Shown here one piece after another: positions 338 through 53,712 of a stretch of DNA of 64,000 nucleotides. The translations under genes were made by a program, and so were the position numbers. The stretch comes from Eledone cirrhosa (taxonomy: Eukaryota): assembly GCA_964016885.1 (NCBI GenBank), contig OZ024741.1:327360001-327424000 (forward strand), written 5' to 3'. The stretch's first letter is position 1, and each line of letters begins with the position of its first letter. The notes under the pieces are model-generated. The model worked only from the letters and a program-made list of their open reading frames with translations. It had not been told where the DNA came from and did not search any database.

Positions 338-423
<86 letters not shown>

Positions 424-429
<6 letters not shown>

Positions 430-1044
430 AATATAGTGAATTTTGCAATACACTCTATGCTTAATTAAAAGCTTTTTGAAGACCTTACGCTATTGATTTA
501 GAGTAGTGACAGTCTCACTTACTTTAAATTTTCAGCCAACAGTGGGAGATAAAGCTGACAGAGCTCTGGTTCGTACTATTTGGTACTTATCAAAGCTAAG
601 TACTCCACCTGTTTGATGAAAATCATGAATGTTTGATTCTTATAGATTTGTAGTAATAATCAGGAACTGATTATACACTATATATACATTCATATGTATA
701 TCGTTATTTCAGACCACCAATTCTAATTTTCAATTTCTGCTTGACCGGCAACCGCTCTGTATAATCAGTTCCTGATTATTACTAGAATTCTATAAGAATC
801 AAACATTCATGATTTTCATCAAACAGGTGGAGTACTTAGCTTTGATAAGTACCAAATAGTACGAAACAGACCTCTGTCAGCTTTATCTCCCCCTGTTTGG
901 TGAAAATTTAAAGTAAGTGAGACTGTCACTACTCTAAAACAATAGCGTAAGTTCCTCAAAATGCTTTTAATTAAGCATACAGTGTATTGCAAAATACACT
1001 ATATTTACATTCATATGTATATCGCTATTTCAGAGTACCAATTC

Positions 1045-1051
<7 letters not shown>
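424..1051. mobile_element. HHR family A fold-back element in (TA)n: minus arm 424-677, plus arm 675-1051 with ~320-nt terminal redundancy
   Basis: 424-677 is the reverse complement of ~758-1010; 675-730 recurs directly at 995-1051; (TA)n on both sides; an HHR motif in each arm. Confidence 0.85.
838..882 (+). ncRNA. Type I hammerhead ribozyme, U3-A8 core variant (family A)
   Basis: AGCT-TTGATAA-GTAC caaata GTAC-GAAA-CAGA cc TCTG-TC-AGCT: stems I, II and III all pair; GUC cleavage triplet at 876-878. Confidence 0.8.
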
Positions 1052-6286: not shown

Positions 6287-7150
6287 GAAAACAGAGAAAT
6301 TAATGTGAGCAAGAAGCCAACAGTAATTCATACATATAAGTGACTATTACGTCAAGATGGAAAATATTTAACGTAAGATATGGGAAAATAATTCAATCTC
6401 AATTCAAAAAAAGTCAAGACAGAAATTTTATCCACAGATTTTGTGTAATCCAGGGAAAAAACCTATAGAGTCTTAACTCAGAATAAAATTAAGAGTAAAT
6501 ACCTATCCTTCAATTTGGAAAAATCTACACATGCTCTATATAGTCTTAAAAAGACTATTTCACGAAACTTTTCAGTCGGGTTAGTCACGGTTGGAGTCGT
6601 TCATCAGTAGAGCTCAACACGATAACTAAGTAGCACAGCTAAAATATGCCAAAAGGGAATTTAAAAGCAGGCTGGTTTCACGTCGTGTGGAATTAAGATA
6701 ATAAACACACATGGAGAACAGGGCTAGTGAGGTCAGAATGAGACGAATGACTGTTTACAAGAAACAGCAGTCAAAACATTCCGAAAAAAAATCAACAAAA
6801 ATTATGTGGTTCAGCATAAATCAAAATACAGAGAGAGAGAGAGAGATAGAGGGAGAGAGAGAGATAGCGAGATAGATAGATAGATATGTTTCTTTTATTT
6901 GCCACCAGGGCATCAAAAGTGGGACAAGTACAATGGGGGGAGTTTACAAAACAAGGCGTCCTCAATAAGGAGGAGGCAATAACAATATATAAAAATAAAA
7001 TAAAATATAACAAAAAATATAATTTATAACAAAGTCCTCAATAGAGTGGAGGCGCCTTGGGGGGTCGCACACACCCCCGAAAAAAGTGTGCAACCCTTCT
7101 CCTCGGGAGCACAGAGAAGGGGTGCTCCCTTGGTGTTTCATCTTCCTCAC

Positions 7151-10100
7151 CTATAGTCTGATGTAGAGTGAAGGCCCATTCACACGGGCCATTCTCGCCA
7201 CTTTCACCCATCTTTCATAAAAACGGCTGGGGTGCAGCACCTCTCTCTCCATCCTGATCCTTCTTCCGAAATGATATCGGAAGAAACGGACCAGTTGTTG
7301 GCCAGAGAGAAAGGTGTCTGACCTCAGTCCTTTCAGACGCGTCCACCATACAACCTCTTTCGCCATGGATATTACGCACAGAAACACCGCCTCTCCTTCG
7401 TTTTTGAAGAGGGGAGGCGGCTTGATCGTTACAATAGACTCGGTGGTCAACCGGATCGGTCCCACCCTTGACAGCAGTTGTTCGACATAGCCCCACAGAT
7501 CGGCAATGCCCGAGCAGTGTACCAATACGTGTGCAACCGTTTCCTCGTCGCACACGCATCTGGGACAGATCTTTTTCGATGGGTCCCTACCCGGGCGCCC
7601 GTGTCTGTAGAGCCTTTCTCGAACGGGCAGAGCCCTTCTGTAGCATTGCCAGGCCAGGGACCTCTGTAAGTTATCCATGAGTCCCGGGCTGAATGTCCTA
7701 CCGAACAGGTTGGCCAGTTCGTCTTCCTCCATGCCTAGGGCTTCTCCGAGGGTGTCGTCGCACCTGCTAACCACCAGCCCTCTATAGAATGACGAGGTGG
7801 ATTCTCCACTGACAGCCGGGTCCGCCTGCCAGAGAGCCGTGAGCGCCTGGGCACACACGGTGTGCCAGGCGCCCAGTTTTCTCGGTCTTTGCTTGACCCA
7901 GGATTGCAGCTCGGTGAGTGAGACGAGTCTGGGAAAGGTTCGCCTCACAAACGGGGCCCACACCGGTTGACCGGAGAGGAATACCTGAAGGTGCCGTAGC
8001 CTTAATGCGTGTTTACGTATCATTAGCCACGGCATCCCCAGCCCTCCTTTCGAAGGGTATTGACGGCAGATGGATCTCCTCACCATAGGAACCCGCTTCT
8101 TCCAAAGGAATTGGACGAGTGCGCGCTCCATTTTGGCGAGCGTTTCCCTTAGGCAAGGCACAACGGTCAGGTGGTAGTAGATGACGGACGCTATATAAGT
8201 GTTCGCCACCTCCGCCCGACCTTTCAGGGACAGTTTGCACTCGGCCCACTTCTGGGTCAGTGCAAACACCCTGTTCGTCACCTCACCCCAGTTCTTCTCC
8301 ACCTGGAGGTCTGGTCCGAACCAGACCTCGAGCAACTTCACCGGGCCCTCCGTCCAGCGCCCGACGACGCCATCGGAGGGCATCGATCTGCCCCTTCACG
8401 TGCCGAGTTGCAGACCGATCGACTTGTCCCGGTTCAACTTAGCCCCTGTAAACCTTTCGTACTCCTCCAGTAAGGTGCCGATCGTCCCGATTTCCGAGGC
8501 CGTGGACACCATTACTATTACGTCATCGGCGTAGGCTGACACAGCTTTCCGCAATCCCGGTTCCAACGGGATGCCCTGCAACAACTCCAGCTTCCGCAGC
8601 AGTGGCTCTAGAGTCACTACATACAGAAGGGAGGAGAGAGGGCACTCCTGTCGGATGGACCGCGCGATTTCGAACGGCTCCGAGAGGTAGCCGTTCACCT
8701 TGACCCTAGAGCAGATGCGGCTGCTGTGCATGGCATTGATCCAGCTCCTGAAAACGGGTCCGAAGCCTGCCGCCGCTAACACCGCGTCCAGGTAACCATG
8801 GTCGACCCTATCGAATGCCTTAGATTGATCCAAGTTGATCTGGGCCCCACCAAAGCCGGGTTCGTTCCCAACCCTCTCTATGATGTATCGTATGAGGTGG
8901 AGGTTATCGTGGATGGACCTGGACGGGATAGCACATGTCTGCGCATCTCCCACCAGGTTGCCCACGACAACCGCCAACCTCTTTGCTAGCACCTTGGCCA
9001 AAATCTGTAACTCTGTATTTAGCAGAGTTATGGGCCTGAAATTATTTATATCGTATCCCTTGTTCTCGTCCTTCCTCACTAGCGTGACTACGCCCTTGGT
9101 CACAGCACAGGGAATTCTCCCGTTCTGTTGCCAGTTGCAGTAGACCGCCTCGACGAGTTTGGGGAACAAGTCCGGCATAGCTAGATATAGTTCGTATGGA
9201 AGACATTCGAGACCCGGGGATTTGCGTTTGCCGCATTGGCTCAGCACGTCCTCTATCTCAGCGGCTGAAATCGGCTCCTCGCAGGTTTTCGCCTCCCAGG
9301 CCGTCGAAGTATGGACCGAATTCCACGTCCCCAACCGGCCCACCGCCCCTTTCGAACAATCCGGCAAAGTGCTTTTGAAAAGCCTCGCACATCTGCTTAG
9401 GTTCAAGGATGACCCATCCATCCTGGTCTCGCAAAGACCGGATAGTGGATCTGCTCCCTCTTTTGGCTTCTGTCACGCGGGCCCAGCTAACAGCTTTGGT
9501 CCCCTCGTTTCCCAGAGCACGTATTTTGCTTCGGACGATGCAGCCTTCGTGTTTCGCGTCGAAGAACTGGCCCAGGGCCGTTCTCGACGCTAGCCCTCTG
9601 GCCACGTCGCCGCTTCTAATTGCCTCTTCTGCACTATCTACCAACTCCCCTTCCTTCCTATTTCTATTGGAAGCTAACTCCTTACTAAATTCTATAGAGA
9701 CTACTCTAATCTCTCTTTTGAGAGATCCCCACCACCTGCTGTTGACGATGGCGCCCGTCAACCGCTCCTTAACTAAAGTGCTAATCCGGTTCCTGTAAGC
9801 CTTACTTGCCGGTAAGGACAAGTTGAGCTTCCAGTAACCGGGTCCCTGTCTATGAGTTCTGTCAAGGTTGACCATGCAGGTCACTAATTTGTGGTCTGAA
9901 TAGCCAACCATGCGCATTTTTGGACAACTTAAAAAGTCCTTATCTTTAATTCTAACTAAGAACCTATCTAGGTAAGACCTAGATGATCCGCAACGATTTG
10001 CCCAAGTCCAGGTTGGCGCAGTCGGAAAATCTAGTCGATATCTATCGGCCAGGTCAAATCGACCGATTAACCCTTTGAGGCTATTACACCCCTCTCTATC

Positions 10101-10571
10101 GGGACAGGCCCCTACGTAGTCCCAGCGTGCATCTAGGATACCATTCCAGTCCCCCACTAATAGCAAGGAGTGGGACGTCCCTACAAAAGTCTCCAGACGA
10201 TGGAAGAAGTCCGGCCGCATTGATCCGAAAGGGCCGTAGGCGGCTACCAACCTAAACGCTCCGCCTTTACCACTGCCAAGGTCCAGAACCACTAGTCGAC
10301 CCTCCGGGTCCAAATGTACCATCTGTGTTGCGAGACCCAGATGTTTTTGCAGCAGAACGACAACTCCACCCCCACCTCCGGGCTGACAGAGAGATGCGTG
10401 CATCTCAAAGTCATCAAAGGTGGGGGCCAGCTGTCGCACGTTGCTGATCCGGGCCTCGCAAATAACCATCACATCTATACGTTGTGACCTGAGGTCATTT
10501 AGAAGCATTGCTTGCTTCCAAGTTGAGCCCAGGCCACGCGCATTTAAACAGCCTACTCTTAGCATAGCCAT
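7151..10571 (-). pseudogene. LINE ORF2: AP endonuclease, reverse transcriptase, C-terminal zinc knuckle (one frameshift near 9290-9300, one in-frame stop at 8396)
   Basis: APE motifs LNARGL, GDWN, SYLDRF, SDH; RT motifs NFRPITLLN, LDQSKAFDRVDH, RQECPLS, YADD; C-terminal CPRC..EETVAHVLVHC. Confidence 0.93.
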
Positions 10572-10595
10572 GTTGGTGGTGAAGAGAAAAGGCAC

Positions 10596-12236
10596 TTACC
10601 TCTCTGCGTCCCGGGTATCGGGCAGCACAATTTCCATTAGGGTGTGGGATGGGTTGATGGGTGGGGTGGTGGTTTGTGGAAGTGTAGGGGCATCAGTGTG
10701 TTGTGTGGTTGGGGAGCTTGGAGTTGTGTGGGGATTTGGCGAGGGGGTGGGGTAGTTTTTTAGGAGGACGCGGTTAATGGGCCCGACGCAGGGGGGACCC
10801 ACGTCCTCTTTAAAGTTGTTTTTTTAAGTTTTATAGGTGTCCTGTGGGGCCTTAATCATTTTGAGGGGGGGGGGAAATCCCCTGCCTGGGTGAAGTTAGG
10901 CCCTTGTGTTTTTATTAGATTGTTGTTGTACACAATGTTTAACAGTTTTTTGTTTCTTGTGTTTATGTATGTGTATGCATGTTTTTGTTTTTGTGTGGTG
11001 TTTTTTGTTTGCTGTTGTTGTGAGCTCTTTTGTGTTGGTGTCAGTGTTATGTTTTGGGGAGGGGTTGTTTTCATTTGTGTGTCTGAGGTGTGTTTTCTTT
11101 TTTTTCTTTTGATTGTGTGGAAGTGCTCCTCCTCGTCTGACGACGAACTAGGGTCATCTTCGGCGTTGGAGGGGAGGGGTATATTTTCGGGTTGTGTTTG
11201 CGGTGCGGGTGTTTTGGAAATTGTTTTTGTTTTTTGAGTGGACGGGATGGGTTGGACATTGTTTTGTTTTGGTTTGAGCTGTGGTGGTTGTTTTTGTAGT
11301 GGTAGTTGTGGTGATTGTGTTGGATGTGCAGTTGTTGGTGGTGTAGGCAGGATTGGGGTTTTCTTATTAAGTTGGGGACACACAGCCCACAGGTGACATC
11401 TGGTTCCGCAGAGGTAACACGAGGGCCGTCTACCCTCAACGGTAATGTTGATGAAGGTTAGATCATCCAGTATGACGCGTTCAGGGATCTGGGCGATCCT
11501 TTCGGGCCTCATTTGAACTATAAGTTCGAGGCTCGTTCCACTGAACGCGTCACCCAATGCCTTTCCCATGGACACCAGCATGTCATCCTCCAGGTCCAGG
11601 AAACCTGTCAAAACCCACCATATGTCCATAATCGGCAGGATGGTGTGGATTTTTATTTTTTGTGTTCTTCTACCCATGTACGTAGGGTAGAAGGTGCATG
11701 CGGTGGATGTGATTGGTTTGATGGACAGTTTCACTGCTGTGTCCCTGTCCTTCATGAGAATGGATAGACTCCCGTAGAGTCTATTCTTCTGAATGAAGGT
11801 GATGTCCTTCATGACGTCTTTTAAAACCAGCTCTATCTCACTCTGTGATGGTTGAGCTGGTTTTTTACTTTTGTTCGAGATTGTCCTAAACATGACCGTG
11901 TTTTGGAGTCTCTGGCTTTTTAGTTCCGGGGGGGGGGGGGATTGTGAATGAACCATTTTCTCCGTACACTATATATTTTTTCGCATCTGCCAGTAGCTCC
12001 TTCGCTTTGGTTATATCTACTGGCAGATAGTCGAGGGTTTTCCTTGTCGTCTCGGCGAAGGAGAAATTTTGTTTGTTTGTGTTGTTGTTGTCGTTGGTGG
12101 TGTTGTTGTTATCATTGTTGTTGTCACCGTTATTGGTCTTGTTGTTGTTGTTATTGTTATTGGTGTTGTTTTCGTCCGTCGCATTGTTGTTGTTGTTGCT
12201 GTTGCTGGTGCCGTTGGTTCTTTGGGTTGTTGCCAT
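10596..12236 (-). pseudogene. LINE ORF1 (gag-like) split by frameshifts at two poly-C/G runs
   Basis: Segments 12236-~11935, ~11935-~10870 and 10802-10596 abut; CX2CX4HX4C knuckle CYLCGTRCHLWAVC; Asn-rich N-terminus; stop lies just upstream of ORF2. Confidence 0.8.
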
Positions 12237-13244: not shown

Positions 13245-13870
13245 GATATTAATAAATGGATACTATATTTATAAAACGATATTTATTTCATTATACATAT
13301 TTCAAGGATACCATGTTAATTTATGTTAACTCAACTTAATATGACATGACTTAAGGTTTTCGTTCTCTCCCCCTCTCTCTATCTCTATATTTCTCTCTCT
13401 TGATTTTTTCTCTCTGTCTGGTGGTTGGATATCTCTCTGTTGTTTTTCTCTGTTTTCTTTTTTTCTTTTTTCTTTCTTCTTTTTTCTTTATTTATCTCTC
13501 CCTTTCTTTTCTCCACTTTTATCTCTCTCGGTTTCTCTCTCTCTCCGTTTTTTTCCGTCTCCTTAACATAACGACTTACAAAAATAAACAAACCACTATC
13601 CTGATGTCTTCCAAAAGTAACGGTCGCATTTTGAAAGGGTACGTCAATGTTTATTTATAAAACTGGTATATATTGTATTTTGTCTGATGAAGGCATACCA
13701 TAATTTAACATGGTATCCTTGAAATATGTATAATGAATTAAATATGGTTTTATAAATATAGTTTCCATTAATAATATCGTATATTTACTCCAAATACATG
13801 TCGAGTGCTTTATATCAGTTATAAAAATATTTGCTTGTTGTATCCCAACAATTTAAATAGAACTTTTGCA
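13242..13870. mobile_element. HHR family D element with short inverted arm
   Basis: 13243-13325 is the reverse complement of 13699-13780; plus-strand HHR CTGATGA(13684)-AGGcATACCAT..ATGGTATCCTT-GAAATATGTATA; TA flanks. Confidence 0.8.
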
Positions 13871-18706: not shown

Positions 18707-19200
18707 AGCTGTCAACACATATATAAATATATATGCAAAAGTTCTATTTAAATTGTTGGGATACAACAAGCAAATATTTTTATAACTGATATAAAGCACT
18801 CAACAAATATTTGGAGTAAACATACGATATTAACAAATGGAAACTATATTTATAAAACCATATTTATTTTATTATACATATTTCAAGGACACCACGTTAA
18901 AATATGGTGTGCTTTCATCAGACAAAATACAATATAGATCAGTTTTATAAATAAATATTGACATACCCTTAAAAAATGCAACCATTACTGTTGGAAGCTC
19001 CCGGATAGATGACTATCCGGGAGCTTCCAACAGTAATGGTTGCATTTTTTAAGGGTATGTCAATATTTATTTATAAAACTGATCTATATTGTATTTTGTC
19101 TGATGAAAGCACACCATATTTTAACGTGGTGTCCTTGAAATATGTATAATAAAATAAATATGGTTTTATAAATATAGTTTCTGTTTGTTAATATCGTATA
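18707..19200. mobile_element. HHR family D near-perfect fold-back (arms 18822-19008 and 19013-19199, 4-nt loop)
   Basis: ~187-bp inverted repeat centred on CCGGATAG-atga-CTATCCGG; left arm extends a further ~115 bp; TA flanks. Confidence 0.9.
19084..19163 (+). ncRNA. Type I hammerhead ribozyme (family D); mirror copy on minus at 18858-18937
   Basis: ~15-bp stem I with one bulge (CTATATTgTATTTTGT / ATAAAATAAATATGG), CTGATGA, stem II AAGcACACCAT / GTGGTGTcCTT, GAAA, quasi-palindromic stem III, AUA triplet. Confidence 0.85.
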
Positions 19201-25174: not shown

Positions 25175-25230
25175 ACTGCCTGATCAGGTCATAGCCATTC
25201 AATGGCTATCATCGAAATATATATAGCAGT
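25175..25230 (+). ncRNA. Hammerhead motif with G8C core change inside a TA-flanked insert (24885-25276)
   Basis: ACTGC-CTGATCA-GGTcATAGCCATT c AATGGCTATcATC-GAAATATATATA-GCAGT; all three stems pair. Confidence 0.7.
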
Positions 25231-32399: not shown

Positions 32400-34230
32400 T
32401 TTTTACTATTATTATTATTAGTTACTAGCTTTGAAATAGTGGAACAAGAATCTATGGTAATGTGGACACGTGTAGAAGATCTCTGATTTCCTATTTAGTA
32501 GGCTAAGGTTAGAGTGAATAATATTTTTAGACTCGAGAATGCAAAGGTTACGAAATTTGTTAGGTCGTCTATATGAAGGGGCCTTAGCTATCACTTCCCA
32601 TTTTAAGGTATATGGTATGTTACTTGATTTTAATGAGTGTATGTATGTGGATAGTAAGGTTACGTTGCTAAGTTTAGGGTTTCTGAACGAATGAAGGTGT
32701 CAAATATATCTGGTCTTAAAGCTATTCGATGTTGAGCCTATATACTTTCGAGATATGATTAACAGTTACAGTACGGGAATAGACAATGTCTTTAATTAGG
32801 CAGTTCTTATTTAATAGACATGTCTTGTTAGGCCTACAATTACAATTGTTTTGTTTACTAGTATACTGGTTAACGGGGTATGCGTTTGAGTGGTTGTTTC
32901 TGTTTCTACTTCTAGTATTATGATTATGGTGAGTATTATTACTATTGGTATTATTAGTGTGACTTGCTGTATGGTTTTGTACTGTGTTATTGTTCAGATT
33001 ATTTCTATGCTGGACATTATTACTTTGGTGTAATTTGAAGAACTCTTTAATCTTTCTATTGTTGGTGTTGGCTATATGATCTGCTATGTTAGGTGTGGTG
33101 GAGTAGGATATGTTAATTGTGTTTTTGTTAAATAGATTGTGGTATTTATGGTTAGTTGGGAAGTTTTTGTCTAGAATAGAGAAGAAAGCTTTAGGTATGT
33201 TTGTTGATACATTTAAGTTGCGCGGAGGGTTAAAGAATGTGCTACTTCTCCTTCTATTCTTCTTATGCTTTCTTATTCATACTACTGTTTAGTGTGGTGT
33301 TAGGTTCCTTCTTATCTATGTTTTTCTTTCTGTGGTGTTTCTTAGGGTTATTGCTGTGGTGTAATTTAACTTTTTTATGGCGCCCTTTGTATAGGAGTCA
33401 GGATTTTCAATACTATGATCATATTTACTTTTATTCATGGCCATGGTGTGTGAAATTATATTAGGTTGTCTATGGGTGGTTGAAGATTTAGGTTTAAATT
33501 TAAATTTATCTCTAAGGCCGGAACGGACTAAGGCTTCATTATAGTATTGGTAGTTACGATTAAATGTATTCTCGTTGTAAGAAAGGCTAGAGATTCTATT
33601 AAATACCCCTTTAAAGATTAAGGTCAGTACAGATTTGAAGTGGTTAGAGTTGGTATTAACATAGAAAGGCTTTTCATTAGGTTTATTATAAGGTGTGTAT
33701 TTTTTAGAGTCTAAGTAGAGAGTGACGTCCAGGAAGTTAACATTTTCGCTGTTTTTATCTAAAGTGATACCTAAGTTATAGTTTTTAAATATTTTATGTA
33801 ATTGTTTTCTAGTTCTTTCTATATTTAACGTTTTATAGTCTAAGAGGAAGAGTGCGTCGTCTCGGTAGAGGCCACCGTTGAGGTAAGGTAGGTTCTTGTG
33901 TATTTCGATTAAGAGAAATAGACCTACTAAGTCGGTTACCTGTGCCGAGACACTAGATCCCATGGTGATATCAAAGTTGTTCGGTGTATTCTTGCGGGTC
34001 CATAGTTGGTCTTCAAATTTAATTATTGTTTTCCTGGCCGCAAGGATTATATCTACCTGGGATCTATTGAGTTCAACATTGTTCATCGCCATTATTAATG
34101 CTTTATTTAGGAGGATAGGCGAAATGGAAGTGTAGTAGGAGTTTATATCAAATTGCATGAATTTCTTATTATTATCCTCATTAATACCACTAAACCATTC
34201 GATTACTTCACTAGTGTTTCCAAGAGGTTA
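32400..34230 (-). pseudogene. Penelope-like element RT plus GIY-YIG endonuclease, 5'-truncated and frameshifted
   Basis: QFDINSYYTSI, FDITMGS, GGLYRDDAL, NFLDVTL and KPNEKPFYVNTNSNH in ORF 33316-34158; downstream frames FFNPP..KAFFSILDKNFP..ISYSTTPNI, CNC, YIGST, NLCILE. Confidence 0.9.
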
Positions 34231-39224: not shown

Positions 39225-39235
39225 ATATATATATA

Positions 39236-39622
39236 TGGTATTAGTTTTGGTGCTCTGAAATAGCGATGAATACATGAATGTATATATAGTATATTTGGCA
39301 ATATACTGTATGTTTAATTAAAAATATTTTGAAGACTATTCACTGTGAGTTTAAAAGTCGTGACTTAGTCAATAACTTATTCTTGGCAAAAGCAAAGGAG
39401 AGTAATTGACAGTCCTGTTTCCCGCTCATTACTATTCACCCCTTCGCTTCTGCTGGATTCTTATAGAATTCCATTCATATTTAAGAGCTGATTAATCAGA
39501 GCGGTTACCGGTTCAGCAAAAATTTGGTATTAGTATTAGTGCTGGGAAATATAGATGTATACATGAATGTATGTATAGTATATTTGACAATACTAATACC
39601 TAATTCTTGCAGTATATTGCCA
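39236..39622 (-). mobile_element. Diverged relative of family A with ~290-nt terminal redundancy
   Basis: 39236-39304 recurs at 39525-39593; shares CTGATTA..CAGAGCGGTT.CCGGT with A; HHR 3' half GAAACAGGACTGTC on minus with the 5' core deleted; short inverted tail at 39610-39622. Confidence 0.65.
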
Positions 39623-41183: not shown

Positions 41184-46988
<5,805 letters not shown>

Positions 46989-52345: not shown

Positions 52346-52414
<69 letters not shown>

Positions 52415-52418
<4 letters not shown>

Positions 52419-52674
52419 GAATGTATATATAGTGTATTTTGCAATACACTGTATGCTTAATTAAAAGCATTTCAAAGACTTTATGTTATAGTTTTAGAGT
52501 AGTGACAGTCTCACTTACTTTAAATTTTCAGCAAACAGGTGGAGATAAAGCTGACAGAGCTATGTATCGTACTGATTGGTACTTATCAAAGCCAAGTACC
52601 CCACCTGTTTTCTGAAAATCATGAATGTTTGGTTCTTATAGAATTTATAGTAATAATCAGGAACTGATTATACA
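52415..52674 (-). mobile_element. HHR family A arm
   Basis: Matches 424-677; minus-strand HHR TTGATAA-GTAC..GTAC-GATAC (A14 mutated). Confidence 0.85.
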
Positions 52675-53712
52675 GTGTGTTTCTAAATATATTGTTAATA
52701 ACTCCCTCTGGTCGAGCAATCTTTGAAGTGTGGGGACAACTGGAAAGCTTCCATTACTCATACTTCTAGCCTTCTTCACCACCTCTTCTGCGGCCTCGAT
52801 ATGAATACCCCCTCCGCCTCCGTGGTATTTTCTTCGTGGTTATAAGTGGCTTAGCTCTGTTTCTCGACCGTTATATCGCGTGACTATCCCCCCCTCCGCC
52901 TTTTGGGATTCTTTCTCACGTCGTGTAGACGCGTTCTTGAGACTAGTAAAATGAGGTATCCTCTTAATAAGTCGGCAGACCTCGCAGGGACTCTATATCT
53001 TTATGATATATTGTTTTTGTTTATGCCACGAAACTACGTAGTCGAGGAATTTAGGAGCAGTTTAGGTATGATACATTTTATTACTAATTATATCTAAATG
53101 TTTCTTCTCTCTTCATAATGTATTTTTAACTCTGATACTGGTTCAGTCTAGTTCAACTGAATTGGTCTGTCCCGGTCATTCATTGAGCAACATCGGTGAA
53201 GTTGGCACCCTTAACTCACAGTTGGGTGCGGATGCATTCATGTATATATGTGTGTGTCCGCATGTATCTGTGTGTTTCTAAATATATTGTTAATAACTCC
53301 CTCTGGTCGAGCAATCTTTGAAGTGTGGGGACAACTGGAAAGCTTCCATTACTCATACTTCTAGCCTTCTTCACCACCTCTTCTGCGGCCTCGATATGAA
53401 TACCCCCTCCGCCTCCGTGGTATTTTCTTCGTGGTTATAAGAGGCTTAGCTCTGTTTCTCGACCGTTATATCGCGTGACTATCTCCCCCTCCGCCTTTTG
53501 GGATTCTTTCTCACGTCGTGTAGACGGGTTCTTGAGACTAGTAAAATGAGGTATCCTCTTGATAAGTCGGCAGACCTCGCAGGGACTCTATATCTTTATG
53601 ATATATTGTTTTTGTTTATGCCACGAAACTACGTAGTCGAGGAATTTAGGAGCAGTTTAGGTATGATACATTTTATTACAAATTATATCTAAATGTTTCT
53701 TCTCTCTTCATA

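Follow-up and report, generated by a model that had tools for sequence, protein, structure and literature searches.

The hammerhead motif at 820-899 of the window (the whole 64,000-nt stretch of Eledone cirrhosa DNA analysed here) is probably a type I ribozyme with a U3-A8 core pair, carried by a 321-nt non-coding non-LTR retrozyme that is likely copied in the Penelope manner; a conserved helix containing U3 is predicted to block the ribozyme in a single unit, and two co-folded units are predicted to cut. The conserved off-helix and the predicted monomer-off/dimer-on switch are new; the U3-A8 variant alone is ordinary. More tentatively, we propose an animal retrozyme lineage with a two-state switch inside the hammerhead, in which U3 would pair with A8 (on, tandem dimer) or with base 15.4 (off, monomer or circle). 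Such a switch would lock U3-A8, tie it to C17 and allow reversion to C3-G8 upon shrinkage of stem III, as in the 14,000-copy 310-nt sister family; we hold this wider reading possible rather than probable.

The plus-strand sequence folds as a type I hammerhead with a z-score of -3.97, and none of 200 shuffled sequences folded equally well. It has three stems, the residues U4, G5, A6, A9, G12, A13 and A14, the A15.1-U16.1 pair and an H at position 17, together with a Watson-Crick 3-8 pair, which is U-A in A, A', B and D and C-G in the 310-nt and G families. The characters of the minimal hammerheads of Penelope-like elements (PLE) are absent: A9 is followed by G10.1 with no extra base, and stem III comprises 12 nt. 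Rfam matched 824-901 to Hammerhead_HH9 (19.6 bits, E 0.039), missing the gathering score of 52; since the HH9 model has C3-G8 and different stems, this sub-gathering score restricts the HH9 label only. When Rfam was run over the whole window, miRNA matches to microsatellites drowned the output. By analogy with the HH9 consensus, which they resemble, the stem I bulge and loop II (Table 1) are likely the elements of a tertiary contact.

The preliminary description had listed three TTGATAA cores. Those at 842-848 (+) and 52583-52589 (-) were placed correctly; the third lies at 587-593 (-), 10 nt away from the approximate site given (577-583). Its statement that only the 838-882 copy retains an intact GAAA agrees with our reading, as the copy with core 587-593 carries A15.1C at position 569 and the 52-kb copy carries A14U at 52566.

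Table 1. Coordinates of hammerhead and retrozyme features in the window
Feature	Positions	Strand	Basis
Type I hammerhead, extended stem I	820-899	+	fold z-score, HH9 match, 92.9% of 812 cells paired (28 copies)
Core positions 3-9 (U3 = 842, A8 = 847)	842-848	+	sequence
Stem I proximal, 838-841 with 879-882	838-882	+	fold and covariation
Stem II	849-862	+	fold and covariation
GAAA	863-866	+	sequence
Stem III	866-877	+	fold and covariation
Predicted cut	after C878	+	fold
3-nt stem I bulge (833-835) and 6-nt loop II (853-858)	833-858	+	HH9 alignment, tallies
Off-helix, 838-844 with 867-873 in the family; broken by C871 in the window copy	838-873	+	
One unit of 321 nt; GC content 33%; no stop-to-stop frame above 59 aa	701-1021	+	
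Right arm, 379 nt (1.18 units), up to long end E2 (tail), then (TA)n	673-1051	+	
Left arm, inverted, 5'-truncated, up to short end E1, then (TA)n	421-677	-	
Single-arm copy, the third of family A in the window (core at 52583-52589)	52409-52675	-	
Sister family B copy, deletion removing the core and half of stem II	39228-39593	-	

The insertion consists of a minus and a plus arm arranged head to head and flanked by (TA)n, the left arm being identical to 758-1014 at 242 of 257 positions. At other loci the unit recurs in tandem with a period of 318-321. Examination of 122 loci (95 distinct) revealed 60 head-to-head junctions, and 40 of the 46 classed two-armed insertions had one short E1 and one long E2 end, about 30 nt apart (p = 3e-7). 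Arms longer than 351 nt were frequent (65/167), and an 18-unit tandem array of subfamily A2 (L367, 2457-7956, minus strand) consists of units 86-90% identical to the window copy. The long arms and this array imply that the copying enzyme continues past the cut site, with which a circle and an uncut multimer both fit. The 5' ends of the arms did not cluster at the cut site (2/167), and there was no A-to-G editing asymmetry (15 versus 13 in A', 38 versus 42 in A).

A tandem non-coding unit of about 170-400 nt, a GC content below 45% and one type I hammerhead per unit are features of non-LTR retrozymes, and family A has all of them. Craig et al. (2021) described Penelope-like elements with an inverted 5'-truncated copy, a tail of 30-40 bp, partial tandems and microsatellite targets (PMC8557442). 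Family A insertions match this anatomy in the inverted 5'-truncated copy, the tail at one end and the microsatellite target, but the unit itself differs: the 321-nt unit contains no ORF for a reverse transcriptase (RT) and GIY-YIG endonuclease. Judged by its anatomy, the element would work like a non-autonomous Penelope-like passenger; an autonomous partner with the same element end was not found.

To assess the core across the family, the genome (3.0 Gb) was searched with a family A pattern of 20 places in which positions 3, 7 and 8 were free. This gave 1,103 matches against 2 for a control pattern. In keeping with the preliminary description, the genome-wide core is not CTGATGA: U3-A8 was present in 96 of the first 100 listed of the 1,103 matches, with no C3-G8 family copy, and the copies aligned at the loci of the best matches had U3 in 48/48 and A8 in 50/50 cases. 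G8 occurred in seven matches genome-wide: six are U3-G8 copies of the family, and the seventh, the lone C3-G8 match to the pattern, is unrelated DNA.

That the double change reflects selection had been argued from the three window copies, but three copies of one repeat sharing it show descent only. The conclusion itself holds on other grounds, namely compensatory stem changes between subfamilies and the switching of the core pair, C3-G8 or U3-A8, among homologous families. We compared 28 copies (27 of the 30 pattern loci, three truncated ones being dropped, plus the window copy). In the hammerhead, 92.9% of 812 cells were paired, 37 had changed on both sides and none of 500 shuffles reached this, kinship among the copies inflating these counts. 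For example, one stem I pair is UA in 20 copies and CG in 8; two stem II pairs are CG 17/UA 10 and CG 18/UG 2/UA 7; two stem III pairs are GC 21/AU 5 and AU 19/GU 4/GC 5. Wobble intermediates were seen among these changes. Stems I-III have been rewritten in a compensatory manner across the subfamilies (A1, A2/3, A4, A') and the sister families around a fixed core: eight fixed core positions are the same in all six families, compared with 54 of 280 other columns (p = 3e-6), and positions 3 and 8 change jointly in every family majority. These sequence comparisons support a real hammerhead with U3-A8 held by selection, for which catalysis is predicted; the U3-A8 covariation appears genuine and selected, and is already known in kind. 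Perreault et al. (2011) reported it from nature and stated such cores to be active in vitro; their variants share the covariation with family A, but are few and scattered, and the accessible part of that paper describes no family history or switch (PMC3088659).

U3-A8 had also been called a rare functional covariant. It is indeed a known natural variant, but it is not rare here. A descriptor that left positions 3 and 8 open was run on 1 Mb, sampled as 100 evenly spaced stretches of 10 kb, and gave 51 C3-G8, nine U3-A8, three U3-G8, no C3-A8 and five other matches; five shuffled sets combined gave no C3-G8 and four U3-A8. Eight of the nine U3-A8 matches, from four families, are credible, making up 8/59 of all credible matches in 1 Mb. 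The expectation that CUGANGA searches miss such motifs is borne out, since these descriptors overlook about one in seven hammerheads in this sample. C17 accompanies U3-A8 in three of four families and C3-G8 in none of 11 (p = 0.009), a tally of families seen more than once to which the exception, family E, was added by hand (its copies had collapsed to one string). As a side hypothesis, the cut site might become trapped in a U3-A17 pair, by analogy with what has been proposed for C3-G17 (PMC3884650). Family E comprises short mirror-image (TA)n insertions with a U3-A8 core and A17 (L116, L126, L201).

The damaged copy at 39228-39593 led us to sister family B, whose stems differ from those of A and whose core is the same. 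Its pattern gave 130 matches; among the first 100 listed, 91 were U3-A8 and none was C3-G8. The 310-nt family is colinear with A and B and gave 13,989 pattern matches, of which the first 100 listed were all C3-G8; this count comes from the pattern, as a DNA search using the unit as query found no matches despite such abundance. Family G (C3-G8) is homologous downstream (19/20 copies above 5 bits versus 0/120 controls), and family D (U3-A8) shows homology to G on the upstream side (19/23 copies versus 0/138 controls). Outside the ribozyme, 0/23 copies of D exceeded 5 bits against A, B or the 310-nt family, so that its link runs only through G. Trees that include D rest on a weak alignment; a single U3-A8 clade was rejected both for the complete unit (p-AU 0.0017) and after removal of the ribozyme (p-AU 0.021), but not for the ribozyme alone (p-AU 0.12). 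According to these trees, at least two switches between C3-G8 and U3-A8, in either direction, would be needed. Grouping of A with B had support of 92/94 in the tree without D, with alternatives not rejected (p-AU about 0.2); the ribozyme-only tree joined B with the 310-nt family (support 91/89).

Two further features of these families may be mentioned. The base of stem II is mismatched in B (A-A or C-A) and in the 310-nt family (U-U; loci L271-L300 and L136). The old families D and G have in common an octamer-like word, ATGCAAAT, about 85-90 nt upstream of the core (L301-L360); A, B and the 310-nt family lack this word, which we assume may act as a promoter element.

In families A and B, positions 2.4-G5 (the 5' strand of stem I plus U3-U4-G5) are complementary to stem III positions 15.2-15.8, a complementarity that the hammerhead fold itself does not demand. 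Because of the resulting off-helix, the predicted probability of the hammerhead fold is only 0.001-0.004 in intact family units, against 0.37 in the window copy. The median off-helix probability was 0.95-0.99 in A1 (25 of 62 copies folded), A2/3 (13), A4 (3), A' (25 of 29), B1 (11) and B2 (19), compared with at most 0.07 in the 310-nt, G and D families and 0.12 in the window copy. Whichever of three parameter sets and two temperatures was used, the energies favoured the off state by 1.2-7.6 kcal/mol, and in the window copy the hammerhead by 1.8-5.2 kcal/mol. Across 45 rows of A and B (40 distinct), 91.4% of 280 off-helix cells were paired: pair 2.1:15.5 is CG in 20 and UA in 14, pair 2.2:15.6 is CG in 16 and UA in 16, and pair 3:15.4 is UG in 35 and UA in 3. 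The chance of this covariation is about 0.001-0.006 under a simple null, for what amounts to about two independent double changes with related rows inflating the shuffle test; complementary runs in other families reach at most 3 pairs.

The folding suggests that the monomer is off and the tandem dimer on, through the self-complementary 12-nt stem III, with U3 predicted to be partnered by A8 in the on state and by base 15.4 in the off state. All four natural A' tandem dimers folded as double hammerheads (marks 0.84-1.0); two natural tandem pairs of A1-3, one with a damaged site, did so only partly. In two-strand folds the median double-hammerhead probability was 0.78-0.86 in the A subfamilies and 0.24-0.29 in B. 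Swapping in C3-G8 brought it to 0.00-0.26 in A1-A4 and to 0 in B, and in A' weakened the off-helix from 0.98 to 0.28; C3 is thus predicted to over-stabilise the off state in A1-A4 and B and to weaken it in A'. For the 310-nt family a double hammerhead was predicted in none of five tandem pairs, yet at 0.90 in the two-strand fold. All of these folds describe secondary structure only, and tertiary loop-bulge contacts and Mg2+ could outweigh 1-4 kcal/mol in A1-A3. As the U3-A8 families C, D and E lack the off-helix, it is not a general explanation of U3-A8. Nor does the dimer-switch model account for most family A arms being short compared with the arrays of the 310-nt family.

According to our proposal, tandem copies would be transcribed, as literature on related elements suggests, and two ribozymes would swap strands through stem III, which is self-complementary, and cleave behind C17. 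The released monomer would refold into the off-helix and, by the same literature, be ligated to a circle that persists; a Penelope-like RT would then copy this circle at a (TA)n break from both sides.

The flagged copy is not representative of its family. It carries C871 where 70 of 75 copies have G, and this private change (G871C) breaks the off-helix, so that cleavage of a monomer from the 820-899 region would misrepresent that of the family. The insertion is likely a dead end, since a single intact site does not allow release of a unit, and the folds suggest that this copy could cut while monomeric. Read-through of both arms is predicted to give a long hairpin in which the probability of the flagged hammerhead is 0.0.

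A ribozyme that is real and selected might instead cut well as a monomer, with tertiary contacts overriding an off-helix that is incidental or serves product release. The canonical bulge and loop II are retained, 4 bp capped by a tetraloop can form in stem III, the off-helix margin in A1-A3 is merely 1.2-2.1 kcal/mol at 37 °C with two parameter sets, and coral monomers cut efficiently (PMC7229834). The margin is, however, 2.5-7.6 kcal/mol in A4, A' and B; compensatory changes keep stem III self-complementary, which is relevant only in a dimer; and in B the 5' strand of stem I is matched better by bases 15.5-15.8 than by its own partner strand. We regard monomer cutting as unlikely, though it deserves the most attention among the alternatives to the dimer switch.

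Two other readings are far less probable. Copies of family A might be truncated terminal repeats of an autonomous Penelope-like element rather than a self-standing retrozyme. The inverted-arm and tail anatomy is the same, and in another family the U3-A8 hammerhead is embedded in inverted repeats that precede an RT-like ORF, which matches GIY-YIG weakly. But the arms run through the unit as through a circle (65/167 longer than 351 nt), one array has 18 units and the 321-nt unit has no frame above 59 aa; we regard this reading as very unlikely. Least probable of all is fixation of U3-A8 by drift in a master copy, the ribozyme being dead or irrelevant and its core shared by descent only. Here the test within family A is weak (shared variants in 0/11 core columns versus 17/279 columns overall, in a sample partly chosen by its core), but drift would leave unexplained the paired turnover of stems around a fixed core, the joint change of positions 3 and 8 in every family majority, and the prevalence in 1 Mb of 51 C3-G8 and nine U3-A8 over no C3-A8 and three U3-G8.

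Our preferred reading, a retrozyme switched by dimerisation, has close parallels. Metazoan non-LTR retrozymes likewise have a tandem, low-GC unit of about 300 nt with a canonical type I hammerhead and no ORF, and share their genome, as here, with Penelope-like elements; members from amphibians are known to depend on dimers for cutting (PMC7229834; 10.64898/2026.07.22.740005). Li, Clavereau and Pollet (2026) linked animal retrozymes to Penelope-like elements (10.64898/2026.07.22.740005). Family A, known here from its DNA sequence, differs from them in the U3-A8 core, the long stem III (10-12 nt) and the local off-helix. The monomers of plant LTR retrozymes and viroid hammerheads are inactive through competing pairs, as predicted here, but the block there is a separate complementary sequence in a type III context, whereas in family A it would lie within the type I motif and engage core residues U3-U4-G5 (PMC7229834). 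Cervera and de la Peña (2014) found about 1,300 U3-A8 minimal motifs in the Cercyon elements of Schistosoma mansoni, and their Figure S3 places a U3-A8 motif of S. mansoni beside a similar C3-G8 motif of S. japonicum (PMC4209133). Cercyon hammerheads share the U3-A8 core with family A, but are minimal motifs (one additional base behind A9, hardly any stem III) in the terminal repeats of coding elements, as opposed to canonical geometry in a non-coding unit (PMC4209133). In the literature covered, where subscription papers are thinly represented, we found neither a canonical retrozyme with U3-A8 nor an internal off-helix of this kind.

The Discussion of the 2020 retrozyme paper predicted a free ribozyme in most metazoan circles, some mussel circles excepted, and considered it probably blocked otherwise than by self-pairing (PMC7229834). 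How animal circles avoid cutting themselves is left open in that paper, and family A suggests a specific answer by self-pairing. The proposed switch would also be a reason for a catalytic core pair to remain non-canonical, and natural on/off variants are at hand in the flagged copy versus its family and in A' versus the 310-nt family.

Some observations concern other elements. In U3-A8 family C the hammerhead is carried by inverted repeats, and the RT-like ORF behind them matched GIY-YIG weakly; this ORF had no PDB match and no Pfam match at threshold. At L093 (6260-9950), a U3-A8 hammerhead within inverted terminal repeats is followed by an RT-like ORF of 725 aa and, in another frame, an endonuclease-like piece. 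An RT-like ORF fragment in the window (33318-34227, minus strand) is 62% identical over 265 aa to this Penelope-type ORF. The window also contains a broken LINE-like element (7153-11968, minus strand), one piece of which matches Pfam Exo_endo_phos. Hammerhead-like motifs of other families lie at 13684-13732, 19100-19148, 45928-45976 and 25180-25225 on the plus strand and at 18873-18921 and 6539-6607 on the minus strand; most of them combine C3-G8 and A17 with a palindromic stem III, the copy at 25180 being C3-C8.
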